From a virus (taxonomy: Duplodnaviria > Caudoviricetes): a stretch of DNA of 29,831 bases. A model generated the notes under the pieces. It searched no databases. It was given only the letters and a program-made list of their open reading frames with translations, and was not told the DNA's origin. The stretch lies in IMG/VR virus record IMGVR_UViG_3300025653_000181, positions 1 through 29,831 of that record; one strand, 5' to 3'. Positions 558 through 28,035 of this stretch are shown in pieces. The position numbers were made by a program, and so were the translations under genes. Within the stretch, counting starts at the first letter, position 1. Every line of letters starts with the position of its first letter.

Positions 558-1520
558 TCATCCATAAGATGCAGCAGCAGGACCCCTTCTTGCTGTTCCT
601 GCGGTACCTTCAGAACCTATAATGCTTCCAGTGTTATCAAATCTTGTTATGTTGTCAAAGACTGTAGATGCTGGTCCTTCTCCAAATCCAAAGATTGCCT
701 TATCACCACCATAGGTTGCAGCAGCAAGGTATCTTCTTGCCGTTCCTGCATTTCCTTCAGAACCTATAATGCTTCCAGTGTTATCAAATCTTGTTATGGT
801 GTTTAAATCAGAACCATTATCTCCAAATCCAAAGATAGCCTTGTCTCTACCATAGGATGCAGCAGCAAGAGCATATCTTCCCGTTCCTGCTGTTGTTTCT
901 GGACTTACAAAAGTTCCAGTGTTATCAAACCTTGTTATGGTGTTTACATATGATGAACCATTACGTCCGAATCCAAAAATTGCCTTGTCTCCACCATAAC
1001 TTGCTGCTGCTAGCCCATACCTTGTTGTTCCAGCAGTGTCTTCATTACCTATTTGAGATCCAGTGTTGTCAAATTTGGTTATGGTGTTGTAGGAGGTGTT
1101 GTTGAAATCACCAAATCCAAAGATTGCCTTATCGACACCATAGGTTGCAGCAGCAAGAGCATATCTTGCGGTTCCTGCATTTCCTTCTGAACCTGTAATG
1201 CTTCCAGTGTTATCAAATCTTGTTATGGTGTTTACATATGTAGTTGTATATCCAAATCCAAAGATTGCCTTATCGACACCATAGGATGCAGCAGCAAGAT
1301 ACCATCTTTCGGTTCCTGCTGTTGTTTCTGGACTTATAAAATTTCCAGTGTTATCAAATCTTGTTATGGTGTTTACATATGTAGTTGTAAATCCAAATCC
1401 AAAGATTGCATTTGTACCACTGAATGCTAACCCTGTCCAGTTCTGGCCTTGAATATATTTTGATGTATTTCTTAATTTCCAAATTCCATCTGATGATGTA
1501 ATATTAGGGAAGAATGCCAT
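558..1520 (-). CDS. Six-bladed Kelch-like beta-propeller repeat protein (paralog A), probable virion/receptor-binding protein
   Basis: Six ~47-aa repeats AIFGFG-loop-NTITRFDNTG-x8-AGTARxxLAAAsYG after a short N-terminal FP..S.GIW.L....GQNW leader; located in the tail-fibre region. Confidence 0.8.
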   Translation of the reverse strand: MAFFPNITSSDGIWKLRNTSKYIQGQNWTGLAFSGTNAIFGFGFTTTYVNTITRFDNTGNFISPETTAGTERWYLAAASYGVDKAIFGFGYTTTYVNTITRFDNTGSITGSEGNAGTARYALAAATYGVDKAIFGFGDFNNTSYNTITKFDNTGSQIGNEDTAGTTRYGLAAASYGGDKAIFGFGRNGSSYVNTITRFDNTGTFVSPETTAGTGRYALAAASYGRDKAIFGFGDNGSDLNTITRFDNTGSIIGSEGNAGTARRYLAAATYGGDKAIFGFGEGPASTVFDNITRFDNTGSIIGSEGTAGTARRGPAAASYG

Positions 1521-1536
1521 TTTTATTTTCCTCTAA

Positions 1537-1923
1537 TTATACTATCAATTTCGGAAACTTTTCTTTCACTGCTAAACAAGCATCAATATATTCTTGAACT
1601 TGATCATTATCACCTTTAACAATACCATCCATGTACAAATCAACTGATGGATAATTATCTTTTCTCATTTTATTCCAAACATAATTAACTAATTCTTTTG
1701 TCAATTTTTGTCCAGTATCACAAGGATATGCTACATTATAAACATATGGTATGTTTTCAATATCAAGTAATACTAATTCTGGATATTCTGTTTTTGAAAA
1801 TACAACATATGAAGAAGCATCTTTATTTTGTCCAATAATGTAAACATCAGAAACACCTGTTGGATTTTCAATATCACCAAAAAGTGTAGCCATATCTTCT
1901 GAAGAAAGTGTATAAAGTTTCAC
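1537..1923 (-). CDS. Hypothetical phage protein, possible fibre-associated/chaperone protein
   Basis: 128 aa; C-terminus R...YP....MD....D....I..C.AVKEKFPK resembles small proteins that accompany fibre genes in aquatic phages; start overlaps the stop of the upstream gene. Confidence 0.6.
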   Translation of the reverse strand: MKLYTLSSEDMATLFGDIENPTGVSDVYIIGQNKDASSYVVFSKTEYPELVLLDIENIPYVYNVAYPCDTGQKLTKELVNYVWNKMRKDNYPSVDLYMDGIVKGDNDQVQEYIDACLAVKEKFPKLIV

Positions 1924-2546
1924 TCTAAAAACTCCTTATCGTTTGTAAGTAATGGAAGACCTTCTTTAAGTTCTATTTTGTTGGAAGGATCTGTGTTTGG
2001 TTGAAGAACTTTTAGGTCTTCTGGTATAATACCCACTGATTTAAGCGCATTCCATGTATATGGATTATTCATTGCATTTCTAATCTTGGAAGCACTGGGT
2101 CTTCCGTTTGCAATTATTTCACTCTGAATATCTTTAGCAATCATTGCTGTATATTCATTTGCAGAATTTAATTCAATCATTTCATCATCTGTATAACCTG
2201 GAAGTCTTGTAGGTTCTACAATATCATATAATTCTTTAAGAAGTTTTTCAAGAACTTCTACTTCTTTTTTACATAATTCAATTGCTTCTTTTTCAGTTTC
2301 TTGGTTTGATTCTATTTCATATATATCAAGTTCTAGCTGTAATATTTTATGCTTGGGTTCATTATTTTCTATCGCATATTGATGTTCTGCTTTTTTTATT
2401 TCATATTTTAATTGAGACATTCTTTCGGTAGCAAGTGCTCGCTTTCTATCAGAAAGAAATCCTTTGATTGTTTTAAGTCTCTCCCAAGGTGTATCACCTA
2501 GTACAACATAACGATAATTAAATTCAGTGTTTAATCTTGTAGCCAT
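1920..2546 (-). CDS. Hypothetical coiled-coil phage protein
   Basis: 208 aa, E/K-rich heptad-like central region; AAGGA RBS and ATAAATA at 2579-2585 upstream. Confidence 0.7.
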   Translation of the reverse strand: MATRLNTEFNYRYVVLGDTPWERLKTIKGFLSDRKRALATERMSQLKYEIKKAEHQYAIENNEPKHKILQLELDIYEIESNQETEKEAIELCKKEVEVLEKLLKELYDIVEPTRLPGYTDDEMIELNSANEYTAMIAKDIQSEIIANGRPSASKIRNAMNNPYTWNALKSVGIIPEDLKVLQPNTDPSNKIELKEGLPLLTNDKEFLE

Positions 2547-2578
2547 AATTCCTTCAAATTATAAATTGTTTATAATAT

Positions 2579-2585
2579 TATTTAT
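2579..2585 (-). promoter_or_regulatory. T4-type late promoter core ATAAATA
   Basis: Intergenic, upstream of 1920..2546. Confidence 0.6.
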
Positions 2586-2589
2586 CATG

Positions 2590-3531
2590 TCATCCACAGG
2601 ATGCAGCAGCAAGAGCATTTCTTGCTGTTCCTGCGGTTTCTTCTGAACCCACATAGGTTCCAATGTTGTTGAACCTTGTTATGGTGTTTACATTAGAACC
2701 AACATCTCCAAATCCAAAGATAGCCTTGTCTCCACCATAGGATGCAGCAGCAAGAGCATTTCTTGCTGTTCCTGCTGTTGTTTCTGGACTCACAAAAGTT
2801 CCAGTGTTATCAAATTTTGTTATGGTGTTTAAAACTGAACCAGTAATTCCATATCCAAAGATTGCCTTATCGCCACCATAAGATGCAGCAGCAAGACTCC
2901 TTCTTGCTGTTCCTGCATTTTCTTGTGAACCTACATAGGTTCCAGTGTTATCAAACCTTGTTATGATGTCTAGGTTTTCAGTTTTATATCCAAATCCAAA
3001 GATTGCCTTATCACCACCATAGGATGCAGCAGCAAGTGCATATCTTGCTGTTCCTGCTGTTGTTTCTGGACTCACAAAAGTTCCAGTGTTATCAAATTTT
3101 GTTATGGTGTCAAACCATGAAGTTGTATATCCAAATCCAAAGATTGCCTTGTCTCCACCATAGGTTGCAGCAGCAAGATACGGTCTTGCTGTTCCTGCTG
3201 TTGTTTCTGGACTCACAAAAGTTCCAGTGTTATCAAATTTTGTTATGGTGTTTAGATTTGTTGTGCCACTTACTCCAAATCCAAAGATTGCCTTGTCTCC
3301 ACCATAAGATGCAGCAGCAAGAGCATTTCTTGCTGTTCCTGCATTATACTCTGAACCCACATAGGTTCCAGTGTTATCAAATCTTGTTATGATGTTTAAA
3401 GCTGAACTTGTATATCCAAATCCAAAGATTGCATTTATTGTGACTGGCCAGTTCTGGCCTTGATTTGCTCTTTCTACTTCCTGCATATTCCAGATAAAGG
3501 AAGCGTTTGTTATATTGGGAAATTGTGCCAT
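2590..3531 (-). CDS. Six-bladed Kelch-like beta-propeller repeat protein (paralog B)
   Basis: Six repeats of the same 47-48 aa unit; same FP...IW...GQNW leader. Confidence 0.8.
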   Translation of the reverse strand: MAQFPNITNASFIWNMQEVERANQGQNWPVTINAIFGFGYTSSALNIITRFDNTGTYVGSEYNAGTARNALAAASYGGDKAIFGFGVSGTTNLNTITKFDNTGTFVSPETTAGTARPYLAAATYGGDKAIFGFGYTTSWFDTITKFDNTGTFVSPETTAGTARYALAAASYGGDKAIFGFGYKTENLDIITRFDNTGTYVGSQENAGTARRSLAAASYGGDKAIFGYGITGSVLNTITKFDNTGTFVSPETTAGTARNALAAASYGGDKAIFGFGDVGSNVNTITRFNNIGTYVGSEETAGTARNALAAASCG

Positions 3532-3545
3532 ATTAGTTGTTTCCT

Positions 3546-4502
3546 TTATCCATAAGATGCAGCAGCAAGTTCCCTTCTTTCTGTTCCTGCATTTTCTTGT
3601 GAACCCACATAGGTTCCAGTGTTATCAAATCTTGTTATGGTGTTTACATTTTCAGTTGTATATCCAAATCCAAAGATTGCCTTGTCACCACCATAGGTTG
3701 CAGCAGCAAGATTCCTTCTTGCGGTTCCTGCTGATTCTTCTGAACCTACATAGGTTCCAGTGTTATCAAATCTTGTTATGGTGTTTACATTTGATGAACC
3801 ATTATATCCAAATCCAAAGATTGCCTTGTCTCCACCATAGGATGCAGCAGCAAGATACCTTCTTGCTGTTCCTGCACTTTCTTCTGAACCTACATAGGTT
3901 CCAGTGTTATCAAATCTTGTTATGGTGTCTACAATTGATGAACCATTATATCCAAATCCAAAGATTGCCTTGTCTCCACCATAGGATGCAGCAGCATGTC
4001 CAGTTCTTGCTGTTCCTGCTGATTCTTCTGAACCTACATAGGTTCCAGTGCTATCAAATCTTGTTATGGTGTTTACAGCTGCAGTTGTATATCCAAATCC
4101 AAAGATTGCCTTGTCTCCACCATAGGATGCAGCAGCAAGTCCGTTTCTTGCTGTTCCTGCACTTTCTTCTGAACCCACATAGGTTCCAGTGTTGTCAAAC
4201 CTTGTTATGGTGTCTACAGTTGAACCATTATATCCAAATCCAAAGATTGCCTTGTCTCCACCATAGGATGCAGCAGCAAGTCCGTTTCTTGCTGTTCCTG
4301 CATTTTCTTCTGAACCTACATAGGTTCCAGTGTTATCAAATCTTGTTATGGTGTCTAGAACTGAACCAATTTCTCCATATCCAAAGATTGCATTTGTACC
4401 ACTGAATACTGTTCCAATCCAGTTCTGACCCATAATTTCATTGCGTATCTCCATCAAACTCCATCTTCCTGTGGAGTTTGATGTTGAAGGGAAATATGAC
4501 AT
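3546..4502 (-). CDS. Six-bladed Kelch-like beta-propeller repeat protein (paralog C)
   Basis: Six repeats of the same unit, all with the TYVGS(E/Q)E linker. Confidence 0.8.
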   Translation of the reverse strand: MSYFPSTSNSTGRWSLMEIRNEIMGQNWIGTVFSGTNAIFGYGEIGSVLDTITRFDNTGTYVGSEENAGTARNGLAAASYGGDKAIFGFGYNGSTVDTITRFDNTGTYVGSEESAGTARNGLAAASYGGDKAIFGFGYTTAAVNTITRFDSTGTYVGSEESAGTARTGHAAASYGGDKAIFGFGYNGSSIVDTITRFDNTGTYVGSEESAGTARRYLAAASYGGDKAIFGFGYNGSSNVNTITRFDNTGTYVGSEESAGTARRNLAAATYGGDKAIFGFGYTTENVNTITRFDNTGTYVGSQENAGTERRELAAASYG

Positions 4503-20656: not shown

Positions 20657-21094
20657 TCAACTTCTTTCTAAAATAGTTTCTAAAGTTATTAATTCTGATT
20701 TATAATTGGCAATATAAAATTCTATAGTTATTTTTAATTCATTGTTATCAGAATTATCTTCCACATCTACTGATACTAAATCAACTCTTGGTTCATATAC
20801 CTTTATCGTTGCTTCTATTCTGTTTTTAATAATATCTGAAACGAATGGCGAAAAAGGCTCAAACAAAAATTCACGAATTCCAGAATAAATTTCCGGATGA
20901 AAAGGTTTATCAAATTGATTAAGAAAAACTAAATTTCTTACACTTCTTTTGATAGCTTCAACATCATATAAAATTTGAATATCTTTTTTAACAGGATGCG
21001 CAAGAAAGTTTAAATTTAAATCTTTATAAATTTTTAAACTTCTTTCAGATAAATTAGTAGATTGAGCATCTATGTAGGGATTTGAAACTGCCAT
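20657..21094 (-). CDS. gp25: Baseplate wedge subunit gp25
   Basis: YKDLNLNF..HPV..D.....DVEAIKRSVRNLV......KPF.PE..SGI...LFE...I..YEPRV. Confidence 0.92.
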   Translation of the reverse strand: MAVSNPYIDAQSTNLSERSLKIYKDLNLNFLAHPVKKDIQILYDVEAIKRSVRNLVFLNQFDKPFHPEIYSGIREFLFEPFSPFVSDIIKNRIEATIKVYEPRVDLVSVDVEDNSDNNELKITIEFYIANYKSELITLETILERS

Positions 21095-21112: not shown

Positions 21113-21120
21113 TATTTATA
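21113..21120 (-). promoter_or_regulatory. T4 late promoter TATAAATA
   Basis: Exact consensus followed by AGGAG RBS upstream of gp25. Confidence 0.8.
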
Positions 21121-21123
21121 TCA

Positions 21124-21375
21124 TTACAACCATGTATCTAACATTGTATGTTTATTCAATTCTTCAACTTTATCTTCATAATAAAATTCTTCACCAGTTT
21201 CTCTGTCTATTTCGCCAATAATAATTCCATTAATACAACTGGCCATGAATTCTGCATTTTCATATGACATCGCACGAATCAATCCACCATAACGATTTAC
21301 ATTATAAAGGTCTTGAAATACAACTATGTATTGTGTTCTGTTATCTCTTTTTCTTATTCTTCTTTTTGTTGCCAT
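21124..21375 (-). CDS. Hypothetical protein
   Basis: 83-aa ORF abutting the PAAR stop; GGAGG in the PAAR 3' end can serve as RBS. Confidence 0.6.
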   Translation of the reverse strand: MATKRRIRKRDNRTQYIVVFQDLYNVNRYGGLIRAMSYENAEFMASCINGIIIGEIDRETGEEFYYEDKVEELNKHTMLDTWL

Positions 21376-21723
21376 TTAGCCTCCAGCAAATACGTTTCCT
21401 GATCCAGATAATATAACTGCACCACAAGCATATGTATCGCCTTGTCTTCCTATATTTTTTCCATTCGCAAAAACTGTTCCACTAAATGATGCAAGTGGAG
21501 GTGAATGTACTGCACAATCACATGGAAAAGTGTGAGGTTCTACAGCATCACCTGCTCTTACAACACCTATACTATTAGCAAACACGTTACCTGAACCTGC
21601 TAATGTTCCAACTACAATTGGATCTACATCACATGCGCAATTATCTTTTGGGTCAGCATCTCCAACTGCTGGATGAACAGTATTTACTGGTTCCGTTCCG
21701 TCTTTTCTTGCTACTGGTGGCAT
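21376..21723 (-). CDS. gp5.4: PAAR-repeat spike tip protein (T4 gp5.4-like)
   Basis: MPPVARKD, GSGNVFANSIGVVRAGD, SGTVFANGKNIGRQGD, CGAVILSGSGNVFAG; His/Cys metal ligands; next to gp5. Confidence 0.9.
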   Translation of the reverse strand: MPPVARKDGTEPVNTVHPAVGDADPKDNCACDVDPIVVGTLAGSGNVFANSIGVVRAGDAVEPHTFPCDCAVHSPPLASFSGTVFANGKNIGRQGDTYACGAVILSGSGNVFAGG

Positions 21724-21818
21724 TATTTACATTCCAATCCACAAGGATTTACTTCATCACATGTACAATTATCACCGCATTTACAATTTTTACATTTACA
21801 TTTTGGATTATTACACAT
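21723..21818 (-). CDS. Metallothionein-like Cys-rich microprotein (31 aa, 9 Cys)
   Basis: Hand translation: MCNNPKCKCKNCKCGDNCTCDEVNPCGLECK*. AAGGA RBS ~6 nt upstream, fills the gp5-PAAR gap, and its TAA overlaps the PAAR ATG (TAATG). Below the ORF-track size cutoff. Confidence 0.8.
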   Translation of the reverse strand: MCNNPKCKCKNCKCGDNCTCDEVNPCGLECK

Positions 21819-21827
21819 ATCTTTTCC

Positions 21828-23042
21828 TTAGTTTAGATTAATAATTCCTGCATCCATATCAATTTCTGGACCAGATGTTATTGTTATTTTTCCACTAGCA
21901 TTTGTTGTTTGTGTTGAATTATATGTTTCAGAAACTGCGCCACCAACTGTTTCACTTCTTGTAGAAGAAACATTTGTGGAGTGACTGCTGCTATATGTTT
22001 CTTTTACATAATCTGTAACTTCTTGTTCCATCCACCCTTTAATAATTTCCTTCTTGTTTCCATCGACTTGTATATCCCAATCACCTTTAATGTATGTCTT
22101 ACAATTTGAATCAATAGTTAAATTTACATCACCTTTGACATTTATAAAATCTGTTCCTGCAACAATTGTATAATTATTACCAACTATTCTGGTAACTGAA
22201 TTACCATCAGCATCCCATTCTTGAAAAGTGCCAGTACGATGTTTTCTATACATTCGTTCAGCATATGGTGTATCATCTATTTCAACGATATGCCCTGATT
22301 CTGATTCATACACTCGATTATATGGATATTCAGTCTGTCTTCTTTTATAAGTTGGTGTGCGATCTTCTAAAGTTTCTGGATTCTTTCCGGATGCTTCTTC
22401 TCCCCTTAAAGAAACGTCAAGTGCTTTTGGCTCATTCCAAGATGATGCAGCTGCACTTGTATTGACTGAATCTTTATATGTTCCTGAGAAATCTTCTGTT
22501 CCTGATTTTACTATTCCTTGAGATAATGCTGTAGGAACACCAAGAGTTGCAGCTGCATCTCTTTCTGCGATTTCCTCATGTGGTGTAGTTCTTCCTCTGG
22601 CTAATCGAGAGGTATCTTGTTCACCAACACGAGTTGGATATGGTCCGTAATCAGGAGTATTTTTGTATTTTCCGATCTGAGGATCAGGAGCACTAGGTGA
22701 GTTCGGATCCGAAAATCCTTTTGCAGGATTTGGTCCAGAGGAAGGATATCCTGGAATAGTGCCAATAACAACAGGCTCTTGCATGGATTGAGGATCTCGC
22801 CAGAAACCCATTACCCACATTCCAGGAGTCAAATTGTGGACTGCTCCATATGGAGCAGTTGGAGGAAGAATTACATGAGCCCATGGAAGATCATCAGTGG
22901 CTATTTTTTGAAGATCATCAGTATGATAACCTAAACATCGTACTCGAACACGACCAATTAGATCTGGATCATCTCGATCTTCAACAACACCAATCCACCA
23001 AACAAATCCATCTCGACCCATGAAATAAGAATAGTTGTCCAT
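21828..23042 (-). CDS. gp5: Baseplate hub / central spike gp5 (OB-fold + beta-helix, no evident lysozyme domain)
   Basis: FVWWIGVVEDRDDP..IGRVRVRCLGYH...LPWA, G.WVMGFWRD...QEPVVIGT, YPYNRVYESESGH..EIDDTP..ER....HRTGTF, C-terminal V.G repeats ending IINLN. Confidence 0.93.
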   Translation of the reverse strand: MDNYSYFMGRDGFVWWIGVVEDRDDPDLIGRVRVRCLGYHTDDLQKIATDDLPWAHVILPPTAPYGAVHNLTPGMWVMGFWRDPQSMQEPVVIGTIPGYPSSGPNPAKGFSDPNSPSAPDPQIGKYKNTPDYGPYPTRVGEQDTSRLARGRTTPHEEIAERDAAATLGVPTALSQGIVKSGTEDFSGTYKDSVNTSAAASSWNEPKALDVSLRGEEASGKNPETLEDRTPTYKRRQTEYPYNRVYESESGHIVEIDDTPYAERMYRKHRTGTFQEWDADGNSVTRIVGNNYTIVAGTDFINVKGDVNLTIDSNCKTYIKGDWDIQVDGNKKEIIKGWMEQEVTDYVKETYSSSHSTNVSSTRSETVGGAVSETYNSTQTTNASGKITITSGPEIDMDAGIINLN

Positions 23043-23065
23043 AAAAACTCCGACTTATGAACAAC

Positions 23066-23073
23066 TATTTATA
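23066..23073 (-). promoter_or_regulatory. T4 late promoter TATAAATA
   Basis: Exact consensus followed by GGAG RBS upstream of gp5. Confidence 0.8.
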
Positions 23074-25691: not shown

Positions 25692-26741
25692 TTATTTCTT
25701 GAATCCTTCTAGGAAATTAGGAAGAAGTCGGTATGCCATGTCACCAGAAATAAACTCAACAGGAAATGGGAATCCAGCTTTCTTCTGAACTTCATCCCAA
25801 CTTGGTTCTTCGAAACCATCCTCAAATCGATCCTCATCAGGAATCTTGGCAAACCAATTCACAAACTCGTCATAGTATTCATCATCAACATATACCTTGA
25901 CAATTTCAAAATTACCCATCACCAATTCGTCATACTCATCTGCAACAAAGTTCCAGCTTTTACTCTGTTTCTTAGCCCAGTTGATATACATGCTGGCAAA
26001 TACTTTGCTGTGCTTCTTGAGAATCTTCTCAGTTCCATCAATATACTTCTTGATAAAATCACGCTTGACATTTGGTGGCACATTTGGTGTATCAATTGCT
26101 CGATCAACATATGATTCTACAGGAATGCTTTTCTTGCCAACAGCCAACAACTTCTTGGTGAGACTGTTTCGAAACTTCTTGAGATCCTCCCACATGCTCT
26201 TGTATTCAGGACTTCGCATGACTCCTTTATAGTCATAGCTATGTGCCAGTTCGGTATCTGGTCCAAGATCAACCAGTCTTCGTCCCTGCTTGTCAACAAT
26301 GCTCATGATGTCCATGCTTGCCCCTGCATAGACATTTCCTCGGAGAATCGAATAGACTCCTCCACCTCCCCAGACTCCAGAAGCCAATCGTCCTTCCTCG
26401 TCTGTTGTATAAACAGATATCTGTTTGGCTTTCTTCTTCTGTATCTTTATCAGCTTCTCAAGATTCTCAGCACTGCTTGCATGAATCCCATAGGTGACTA
26501 CAGACCCAACAACTCGTTCAATCATCGATGGAACCAATGATAGTTGGTATCTTCGATCCTCGTCTGGAATCAGATACCTATAGTTGATGACCTCCGGATT
26601 AGTTCTCTCTGCCTTCAGAATTGCTCGAGTCAACAGCTGTTCATTCTTGATCTGACTATACTCTAGTGTAAAGAGATGATCAAACAGACTTTTTGTCCAT
26701 TGAACTTCTTCTTTGATTAAAAAAGATTTAAAAGTTTCCAT
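25692..26741 (-). CDS. Hypothetical protein, candidate internal head protein
   Basis: 349 aa; N-terminus METFKSFLIKEE resembles T4-type capsid-targeting leaders; CTAAATA immediately upstream (26747-26753). Confidence 0.65.
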   Translation of the reverse strand: METFKSFLIKEEVQWTKSLFDHLFTLEYSQIKNEQLLTRAILKAERTNPEVINYRYLIPDEDRRYQLSLVPSMIERVVGSVVTYGIHASSAENLEKLIKIQKKKAKQISVYTTDEEGRLASGVWGGGGVYSILRGNVYAGASMDIMSIVDKQGRRLVDLGPDTELAHSYDYKGVMRSPEYKSMWEDLKKFRNSLTKKLLAVGKKSIPVESYVDRAIDTPNVPPNVKRDFIKKYIDGTEKILKKHSKVFASMYINWAKKQSKSWNFVADEYDELVMGNFEIVKVYVDDEYYDEFVNWFAKIPDEDRFEDGFEEPSWDEVQKKAGFPFPVEFISGDMAYRLLPNFLEGFKK

Positions 26742-26749
26742 ACATTTAT

Positions 26750-27364
26750 TTAGCTAAACAGTGAGAAAAATCTCTCTGTTTCTTTTGCCAACTCCTCTGC
26801 CTGAACTTCGTATTTCTCCATTGCCCAACTATTGCGTGAAAGAAATCTTGCAGGATTTCCTACGTATGTCATTCCAGGTTCGATCCGACTGCTCTTGGTG
26901 ACAATAGTCCCCATGCCAACCATGCTATAGCTTCCCACCACACCATACTGATGCACCATTGCTCCCATTCCCAGATTGGCATACTTCATGACATGCGAAT
27001 GACCAGCCAGCCGAACTCCGCTTGATATCGTAACCCCATCCTCGAGAATACTGTCATGTGCCACATAGCTTCCACTCATTAGAAATCCTCCATTCCCGAT
27101 CACAGTGGGTGTCACCAATCCACTATGAATGACCACATTCTCTCGCACAATTATGTTTGATGCCAGAATGACTCCTTCTTCACCAATTCTGGTTCGATGC
27201 TCAGCATTCTGACCAATACAACTTCCTGCTCCGATCTCCACATTGTCTCCCAGAATCACATTCCCTGAAAGCACAGCATATGGTCCAATCTTTATATGAT
27301 TCCCCTCAAATACAATCTCGCCCTCTAATACTGCTGTCTGATGTATGTCGATACTCATATCCAA
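26750..27364 (-). CDS. LpxA-like left-handed beta-helix acyltransferase
   Basis: Hexapeptide repeats plus LpxA-type motifs VRENVVIHSG, LMSGSYVAHD, LAGHSHV, VHQY..VG..SMVG, GNPAR; shorter C-terminal helical domain. Confidence 0.8.
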   Translation of the reverse strand: MDMSIDIHQTAVLEGEIVFEGNHIKIGPYAVLSGNVILGDNVEIGAGSCIGQNAEHRTRIGEEGVILASNIIVRENVVIHSGLVTPTVIGNGGFLMSGSYVAHDSILEDGVTISSGVRLAGHSHVMKYANLGMGAMVHQYGVVGSYSMVGMGTIVTKSSRIEPGMTYVGNPARFLSRNSWAMEKYEVQAEELAKETERFFSLFS

Positions 27365-28035
27365 TGTTCCAATAACTCTTTCTCTACATTTGGTGGTTTC
27401 GGATTCCCATGAAAGTATACAATCCGAGCATTAATCTTCCGATGAATATCATTCTTACTCCAATGTGCCTTGTAGCTCTGAATCTGATTAGGGAATATTC
27501 TATTTAGCTTTGTACATTCTTCTCCGACTGTCTTACGAAGAAATGCCATCTCGCTGACTGCTCCATTGTACATCAGATCATTCTTGGCAAACAATCGATT
27601 CCGATTCTCCCACAGATGCCAGAGTCTTCCCACACATCTCTGAGAATACATTCCAATCCCATTACAGATCATGCCTTTTGCGAAAGGATCATCCAGCAGT
27701 CCACAGTCTCCATTCCATTCCAGAATAGAATCAATATTTCCCTTGACGATTGTATCCAATCCCAACACCATTCGACTTCCTGAACAGATCTCTGGTCGCA
27801 ATGTCTCCATCATAGGACTCCAACCATCAATCTTTTCCTCAATCATTACAGGAATGACTCGTTCTCGGAATGAATAGTCGGATCGATCGACAAGACAATA
27901 GAAATGATTTCGCTGTCTGCTGTTTCGTTCAATCCCTGCCACCAGTCTGTCTACCCAGACAGGTGAATACCCTGCCTCTGCTGAATAGGCTGGTGTGCCA
28001 TTTCTGTTTGTATATAATACCATGAAGATGTTCAT
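27355..28035 (-). CDS. GT-A fold glycosyltransferase-like protein
   Basis: Y...WVDRL...I.RN, FYCLVD, degenerate DxD (LGLDTIVKGNID), QSYK.H, RIVYFHGNPKP, C-terminal EHW: pattern of small phage glycosyltransferases. Confidence 0.72.
   Translation of the reverse strand: MNIFMVLYTNRNGTPAYSAEAGYSPVWVDRLVAGIERNSRQRNHFYCLVDRSDYSFRERVIPVMIEEKIDGWSPMMETLRPEICSGSRMVLGLDTIVKGNIDSILEWNGDCGLLDDPFAKGMICNGIGMYSQRCVGRLWHLWENRNRLFAKNDLMYNGAVSEMAFLRKTVGEECTKLNRIFPNQIQSYKAHWSKNDIHRKINARIVYFHGNPKPPNVEKELLEHWI

Follow-up and report, generated by a model that had tools for sequence, protein, structure and literature searches.

The locus analysed here raises the question of what a very short, Cys-rich open reading frame (ORF) does between the genes for the central spike and the spike tip of a phage, and whether its product serves as a metal source for that tip. 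The initial annotation had described it as an unannotated, metallothionein-like microprotein and had proposed, among other roles, a metal chaperone dedicated to metallating the PAAR tip during assembly. The whole stretch of DNA that was analysed, referred to as the window (29,831 nucleotides), is a 29.8 kb viral fragment that is ~17% complete. Its gp6 was closest to those of Melnitz, Mosig, and HTVC008M (44–48% identity, full length), and the sequencing runs containing at least half of the stretch's words (18 rows, seven of them flagged as a possible source) were labelled freshwater metagenome.

The peptide gene and its predicted expression

The gene order around the ORF was gp5, peptide, PAAR, an unknown 83-aa ORF, gp25, and gp6. 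The gp5 gene (21828-23042, minus strand; PF06714, phrog_430) encodes a 404-aa central spike protein with an OB domain and a C-terminal beta-helix, in which Pfam matched no lysozyme domain. The gene for the 115-aa PAAR spike-tip protein is located at 21376-21723 (minus strand; PF05488, phrog_281). The 83-aa ORF (21124-21375, minus strand) directly follows PAAR here and directly follows gp5 in sister phages, and gp25 (20657-21094, minus strand; PF04965, phrog_261) encodes a baseplate wedge subunit. Translation of the minus strand at 21723-21818 gave the same metallothionein-like peptide as the initial annotation, with family searches and selection as further evidence for the gene. It contains nine Cys in 31 residues (positions 2, 7, 9, 12, 14, 18, 20, 26, and 30) and no His or aromatic residues. 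Its own ribosome-binding site and its overlap with PAAR were also present as described: a Shine-Dalgarno-like AAGGA (21825-21829, minus strand) is located 6 nt before the peptide ATG and overlaps the gp5 stop codon, and the peptide stop TAA and the PAAR ATG have one base in common (TAATG). Among the 278 ATG ORFs of 15–60 aa in the window, this one had the highest Cys content, with nine Cys against four in the runner-up by Cys fraction. The label "unannotated" holds in that the peptide is unnamed, but not in the sense of uncalled, since 19 contigs already have the exact peptide recorded among their called proteins.

The ORF was kept between gp5 and PAAR in relatives with 72–100% identical gp5 and 81–100% identical PAAR, together with AAGGA at a spacing of 5–7 nt, and at 71% PAAR identity it persists in the clade as a 20-aa form with seven Cys. 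Across the six distinct sequences of the window clade, pN/pS was 0.07; five codons changed only synonymously and two changed the residue, all of them outside the searched pattern. The ORF is under purifying selection in this clade. The reading-frame relation between peptide and PAAR differed among locus L012, locus L258, and the window, and a frameshift or read-through fusion of the two products was therefore rejected.

The late promoter that had been claimed for gp5 was located at 23066-23073 (minus strand), upstream of gp5, as the T4-type consensus TATAAATA, and a second late promoter consensus precedes gp25 (21113-21120, minus strand). The four copies of this consensus in the window equal the chance expectation, yet all four lie on the coding strand, and the TAAATA core of the gp5 promoter was kept in nine of nine aligned sequences. 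A 16-pair hairpin (23030-23069, minus strand) encloses the gp5 ribosome-binding site and pairs the start codon. Its folding energy was −19.3 kcal/mol (z −5.1), compared to −3.5 kcal/mol without the 5' arm, and both arms were kept in eight of nine aligned sequences. Since the 5' arm starts inside the late promoter, late transcripts would lack the hairpin. Hairpins that hide a ribosome-binding site and are absent from late transcripts are described for T4 e, soc, 49, and I-TevI in the available portion of PMC3014915. The promoter-hairpin fusion at 23030-23073 (minus strand) would be a late-only translation switch of the T4 gene-e type, here on gp5.

The coding strand showed no terminator-like site from gp5 to gp25, and the peptide would be transcribed from the gp5 late promoter. 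Translation would be late-only and would run from gp5 to the peptide to PAAR by re-initiation at the gp5 stop, with the peptide produced in step with the spike and the tip. Contigs from four RNA libraries covered parts of the locus, two of these libraries spanning most of the ORF; strand and level are not readable from them, a DNA origin is possible, and they do not count toward transcription of the ORF. TAAATA-type sites were also present shortly upstream of family members in several gene contexts, and no metal-sensor regulator was seen among the scanned neighbours of family members. The late-promoter context suggests developmental rather than metal-sensed control of the peptide.

Two Cys-rich micro-protein families in phages

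IMG/VR was searched with a pattern that fixed only the first nine codons of the peptide, yielding 107 matches and 55 distinct peptides. Closed ORFs of at most 40 aa accounted for 103 of the 107 matches. A Shine-Dalgarno sequence preceded 100 of the 107, compared to 8.7% of random positions, and 102 carried at least four further Cys past the pattern, compared to 4 of 36 cellular matches. Family members are 19–38 aa long, and the 55 distinct peptides averaged 29.9% Cys, 0.4% His, and 0.4% Phe, Trp, and Tyr together. Nine Cys were present in 39 of the 55 and seven in nine truncated members, which also occur inside the gp5-PAAR clade (L012, L258). The core spacing of the family is C-x4-CxC-x2-CxC-x2/3-CxC-x5-CxC, most commonly C-x4-CxC-x2-CxC-x2-CxC-x5-CxC (30/55 distinct peptides). 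The window member differs slightly (4-1-2-1-3-1-5-3 against 4-1-2-1-2-1-5-1 in the family) and ends in C-x3-C where the family has CxC. In the main group (35 sequences) pN/pS was 0.20, a value to which the search pattern contributes by lowering pN where it fixes part of the first nine codons; the same pattern biases the family toward this N-terminus. All nine Cys sites in this group use both TGT and TGC. The Cys spacing was maintained while spacer residues vary, and the net charge ranged from −10 to +8, which fits selection on the thiols rather than on a fixed protein-binding surface.

The possibility that the ORF is a chance reading or a non-coding spacer was weighed against these data. Its very short length and the fact that its translation is a prediction from sequence would allow this reading. 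The synonymous bias in both the clade and the main-group sequences, the frequency of Shine-Dalgarno sequences, and the excess of further Cys in viral over cellular matches all argue against it, and it is effectively refuted. The peptide ORF is confirmed as a real, conserved, and selected gene, and its coupling to gp5 and PAAR extends across the whole clade.

A second pattern gave 33 matches, and a 36-member profile run against 1.84 billion representatives found at least 49 clusters at 50% identity. The 33 profile-matched clusters that were inspected were nearly all of the same type as the family, with a variable N-terminus, and ten family clusters checked for names were called "hypothetical protein" only. 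None of the 36 members matched a Pfam or NCBIfam model at E ≤ 1, and a Pfam and PHROGs profile scan of the window peptide gave no match. Cultured phages yielded no member in a tblastn search with the peptide or a blastn search with a consensus-like member, which is a weak test with such short, low-complexity queries. When 596 Gb of cellular genomes (GTDB) were searched with a slightly looser pattern, nearly all of the 36 matches were attributable to chance, with one family member on a contig that has the gene order of a viral context (L216) and is therefore likely a binned phage. In 401 genomes from the phylum to which a Halieaceae MAG belongs, the family profile had no match. To the extent that the searched N-terminus is informative, the family looks phage-borne, and from these searches it appears to be an uncatalogued family found in many T4-like aquatic phages. 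Metallothioneins are mentioned as viral auxiliary genes in single sentences of the available parts of two papers (PMC13436329, PMC12917443). A described phage metallothionein family was not found in the literature searched; article supplements and other small-gene catalogues may list one. Two longer proteins were noted in passing. P0133 (213 aa) matches the family profile in six tandem Cys-rich repeats and has a hydrophobic C-terminus, and a 135-aa protein in a Planctomycetaceae MAG (L233:2620-3027, minus strand) has a similar Cys-rich start and a good Shine-Dalgarno sequence.

A second phage family was characterised by the motif CxxCGHxCHC, a length of 30–70 aa, 7–12 Cys, and His ligands, with about 720 IMG/VR stretches estimated. 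Examples are Mosig_00110 (QOI69074.1) and YP_007517915.1 of HTVC008M, both named "hypothetical protein"; further loci of this larger, uncatalogued family include L361:2366-2485, L261:1399-1518, L539:1876-2013, and L541:3777-3899. Homology with the window family was considered and rejected, as the two were not alignable (hhalign probability 4.9%). Like the window family, it is phage-borne; it is often near PAAR-gp25 in T4-like phages, and many of its copies lie beside other genes. It was near PAAR in 16 of 80 loci, in some directly after it, and two to three genes upstream of PAAR in the cultured pelagiphages Mosig and HTVC008M. In Melnitz, neither this family nor a similar Cys-rich micro-ORF was present from gp5 to gp25.

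The PAAR tip and the probable role of the peptide

Membership of the downstream gene in the PAAR (gp5.4) family was supported by PF05488, the PAAR fold, and a His/Cys metal site. Its model (pLDDT 94) matches 4jiv, 4jiw, and 4ku0, and its likely canonical ligands H17, H64, H73, and C100 are kept in the clade, the last three aligning with His, His, and Cys of 4jiv/4jiw. The protein also contains two extra CxC pairs, C29/C31 and C68/C70, at loops where the nearest peptide-less relatives have a single Cys each and therefore two Cys fewer in total. The window gene (21376-21723, minus strand) thus encodes eight candidate ligands (H17, C29, C31, H64, C68, C70, H73, and C100), of which C29 and C68 are conserved in this clade only, whereas conservation of C31 and C70 extends to the wider subfamily. 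The protein possibly has a second metal site or disulfides. The peptide was directly coupled to nine of ten distinct two-CxC PAARs with full flanks. The two-CxC PAAR of locus L259 (75% identical) had no peptide in 650 nt upstream and 2 kb downstream. The link between the two-CxC PAAR and the peptide in this clade is one evolutionary event. Co-folding of PAAR, peptide, and Zn scored 0.00 and carries no weight for or against binding.

Gene contexts were defined by grouping 193 loci with wide flanks by shared neighbours, the 67 loci with 300-nt flanks being excluded. The window family occupied 18 contexts, four of them single-locus ones that are distant or doubtful, and PAAR was located within 1.4 kb in three of the 18 (24 of 80 loci). 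These three comprise the window clade and two contexts that probably represent one lineage and in which a small ORF separates PAAR from the peptide. In a lineage with PAAR away from the baseplate genes, the peptide is still two genes from PAAR. Elsewhere, family members follow Hsp20 (23 loci), a cytidylyltransferase-like gene (17), IscA-IscA-IscU (7), a small terminase (6), gp8, or a cell-wall hydrolase before a terminase. From the side of the tip, 13 of 102 distinct PAARs with 600-nt flanks on both sides had a nearby candidate, of which one was false, nine belonged to the window clade, and three to the second family; outside the clade, 89 of 92 distinct PAARs had no genuine Cys-rich micro-ORF within 600 nt. 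A consistent two-way linkage was therefore not observed, with nine of the twelve genuine PAAR-near cases coming from one clade. In sister phages with 54–70% identical gp5, a different PAAR gene immediately precedes gp5, and the 4.5–7 kb examined of these genome fragments contained no Cys-rich micro-ORF. The initial annotation had named homologs that lack linkage to spike genes as evidence against its proposal, and this is largely what the contexts and loci show. The wording "dedicated to metallating the spike tip" is not supported as a generalisation, given the few contexts near PAAR and the sister PAARs without the peptide.

Some association with PAAR was nonetheless detected, and the idea of a dedicated chaperone was therefore demoted. 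Outside the clade (114 PAARs), the 130 kb lying no more than 600 nt from PAAR held three genuine micro-ORFs and the 270 kb farther away none, which corresponds to about p 0.03 if the cases are independent and about 0.1 if they count as two events. PAARs with a Cys-rich micro-ORF within 600 nt fell into seven groups in a FastTree of 115 PAARs, a short and weakly supported tree from which one false match was dropped. With both Cys-rich families taken together, PAAR was the commonest neighbour (7 of 45 contexts), followed by gp6 (5), gp25 (4), and Hsp20 (4). This enrichment of Cys-rich micro-genes is suggestive; as the other neighbours are nearly as frequent, the signal may reflect a mere late-gene hot spot for small genes.

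Several further features of these neighbourhoods were observed. The sister-phage PAARs of L049-L059, upstream of gp5, have a single Cys, with the tip gene exchanged and moved between close relatives. Locus L106 appears to carry both Cys-rich kinds after PAAR. Family members adjoin phage tmRNA genes at L064:1500-2520, L106:1625-1994, and L118:1670-2018 (by ARAGORN in L106 and L118, by eye in L064), and these members cluster with nrdB-like, glutaredoxin-like, Hc1-like, and PAAR genes. At L216:1721-3114, a phage-like contig in a bacterial MAG, and in L082 and L085, phage IscA-IscA-IscU is directly followed by a family member. A very basic ORF of 43–47 aa with a GQGK-like ending lies next to PAAR at L477:1301-1438, L541:4172-4315, and L064:2050-2181, and in several lineages it is often located between PAAR and the Cys-rich peptide. 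Elsewhere in the window, three ORFs of 313–320 aa gave Kelch-like repeat matches (558-4502, minus strand; PF24681 below the cut-off); two of them are adjacent, and their products are probably paralogs that function in the tail or in adhesion. A glycosyltransferase-like gene (phrog_1962), a hexapeptide-repeat transferase, and a weakly alpha-glucosyltransferase-like ORF (25692-28035, minus strand) form a possible glycosylation module.

The reading that we favour, with a probability of roughly 0.55, is that the gene product is a late-made, single-domain, metallothionein-like peptide that would serve the infected cell as a general metal buffer. The family is mostly located away from spike genes, which makes such a late-infection buffer likelier than a dedicated supplier of the tip. 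In the reducing cytoplasm, the peptide would fold around a three-metal, nine-thiolate cluster, as nine-Cys beta-type metallothionein domains do; by analogy, about three divalent ions per nine Cys are predicted, most likely zinc. During synthesis of the late metalloproteins in a host short of metal, it would store and exchange Zn and sequester Cu or Cd, and PAAR would be one of several clients. A fixed three-metal cluster would not be universal, given the truncated seven-Cys members (9/55). The location of the gene between the spike and tip genes most plausibly reflects its insertion into a late operon, with retention in the clade. The buffer role alone does not predict PAAR as the most frequent neighbour.

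In a different proposal, the peptide is co-translated with PAAR and passes Zn or Fe to the tip during folding, and unrelated micro-proteins were recruited to this task several times. It draws on the direct coupling in nine of ten two-CxC PAARs, down to 71% identity, on the two additional Cys of the clade PAAR, on the seven tree groups and the three-against-zero proximity count, on the second family upstream of PAAR in Mosig and HTVC008M, and on the lineage in which the peptide stays two genes from a displaced PAAR. The metal site of T4 gp5.4, which binds Fe, is needed for folding according to the available text of PMC12407873. The opposing evidence is as follows: 15 of 18 family contexts have no PAAR within 1.4 kb, neither the sister phages, the L259 PAAR, nor Melnitz between gp5 and gp25 has such an ORF at the places examined, gp6, gp25, and Hsp20 are nearly equal neighbours, and the clade link counts once. 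In addition, a T6SS PAAR made in E. coli without such a peptide was 74% Zn-loaded (PMC10715212, available part). We consider donation to PAAR unlikely, and we are equally doubtful of its evolutionary form, in which T4-like aquatic phages repeatedly recruited unrelated metal-thiolate peptides to the PAAR locus as tip metal donors, here coupled to a PAAR that gained two Cys and may carry a second metal site.

Two other roles were considered. Fe-S proteins generally use Cys spacings other than the CxC-rich nine-Cys type. The peptide could serve as an iron, Fe-S, or thiol-redox reservoir instead of binding Zn/Cu, and thereby support phage Fe-S assembly or Fe-loaded tail parts; this would accord with the iron bound by T4 gp5.4 (PMC12407873, in the text available), with the context after IscA-IscA-IscU (7 loci), and with another that has IscU/NifU a few genes downstream. 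IscU occurs in only 2 of the 18 contexts, and the available part of PMC7826182 gives CxC-rich nine-Cys spacing as typical of Zn/Cd/Cu thiolate clusters; an iron role is accordingly the least probable of the functional alternatives. A small structural or host-interacting protein, in which the Cys only stabilise the fold as virion disulfides or a zinc knuckle and which binds a virion or host protein, seems marginally less improbable than donation to PAAR. The late operon beside virion genes fits it, as does conservation outside the Cys, in the N-terminal CNN segment and, in some members, a hydrophobic C-terminal tail. However, the search pattern itself accounts for part of the N-terminal conservation, and profile matches vary there; moreover, the Cys number is odd (nine or seven in 48 of 55), there is no signal peptide and almost no hydrophobic core, and the charge varies across the whole range given above. 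Neither role displaces a general metal buffer as the preferred reading.

Known metallothioneins come chiefly from eukaryotes and from a small number of bacterial families, and the phage reports found were passing mentions of auxiliary genes. A single-domain phage family of 19–38 residues, comprising at least 49 clusters and lacking a profile, would represent a natural metal-thiolate cluster of minimal size. It would also point to trace-metal management by lytic aquatic phages in the late phase of infection. If recruitment as PAAR donors were true, no earlier metallochaperone would be known for the tip of a contractile injection system, and phages would have a way to manage scarce host Zn or Fe. 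The partial recurrence of two unrelated Cys-rich families near PAAR makes it testable how spike tips obtain their metal, and Mosig and HTVC008M are cultured pelagiphages that carry the second family.

Comparison with known metal-binding systems

Metallothioneins hold several d10 metal ions in a metal-thiolate cluster and serve metal homeostasis or detoxification. Metallothioneins contain few or no aromatic residues, as do the window peptide (none) and its family (0.4%). They are defined in the available text of PMC7826182 as proteins of <100 aa with ~15–30% Cys in CxC/CC motifs, and the window peptide fits this definition in size and Cys content (31 aa, 29% Cys, three CxC). The predicted peptide thus has the composition of a metallothionein and probably works like one, although it falls outside any catalogued family. 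The 36 members gave no significant match to a curated metallothionein profile or structure. The sole PDB sequence match of the peptide and of the profile was 1QJL, a 28-aa metallothionein chain with nine Cys, at E-values of 0.5 and 1.8, below significance. We take 1QJL to be the sea urchin MTA beta-domain. It resembles the phage peptides in length (28 against 28–31 residues), in its nine Cys, and in the order of a lone C followed by four CxC (C-x4-CxC-x3-CxC-x3-CxC-x4-CxC, compared to C-x4-CxC-x2-CxC-x2/3-CxC-x5-CxC in the family); unlike it, the phage peptide is a stand-alone single domain. ESM Atlas neighbours of the peptide include a PF02067 metallothionein cluster (0.87), taken as a lead only. 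The metal-free AlphaFold model (pLDDT 70, pTM 0.30) had no fold match by Foldseek and VIA-align and is too poorly determined to inform on the fold.

The initial annotation had likened the peptide to the vertebrate metallothionein beta-domain, a comparison that is borne out for Cys count and size but not for Cys order. Vertebrate beta-domains and mollusc beta1, beta2, and beta3 domains also have nine Cys, CxC motifs, and ~30 residues (PMC8476144, PMC7826182, as far as available). Vertebrate beta and mollusc beta2 have four CxC and then C, where the family has C and then four CxC; mollusc beta1 is [CxC]2-C-[CxC]2 and beta3 is C-C-[CxC]3-C, neither of which equals the family order. All of these domains sit in two-domain proteins, unlike the phage peptide. 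Membership among vertebrate beta-domains was rejected, as the spacing [CxC]x5[CxC]x3[CxC]x2[CxC]x2C given in the accessible part of PMC8476144 is matched neither by the window peptide nor by the family. Convergence, which the initial annotation had allowed for, is now the safer reading, with homology indistinguishable from it. Among prokaryotic proteins, SmtA/BmtA and MymT are likewise small, Cys-rich, metal-sequestering, and often missed by annotation. BmtA adopts a zinc-finger fold with His ligands and also carries a conserved Tyr (both statements from the available text of PMC3323870), whereas the window peptide has no His and no aromatic residues. Membership in BmtA/SmtA was rejected for a peptide that has neither His nor Tyr and no Pfam or NCBIfam match.

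The gp5-gp5.4 locus of T4 provides the closest counterpart in gene organisation. It likewise has the order gp5, PAAR, gp25, and gp6 and a metal-stabilised tip, and the available account in PMC12407873 includes no metal-delivery protein at that locus. The window differs from it in carrying a Cys-rich micro-gene between spike and tip, and in a PAAR that bears two extra CxC pairs.
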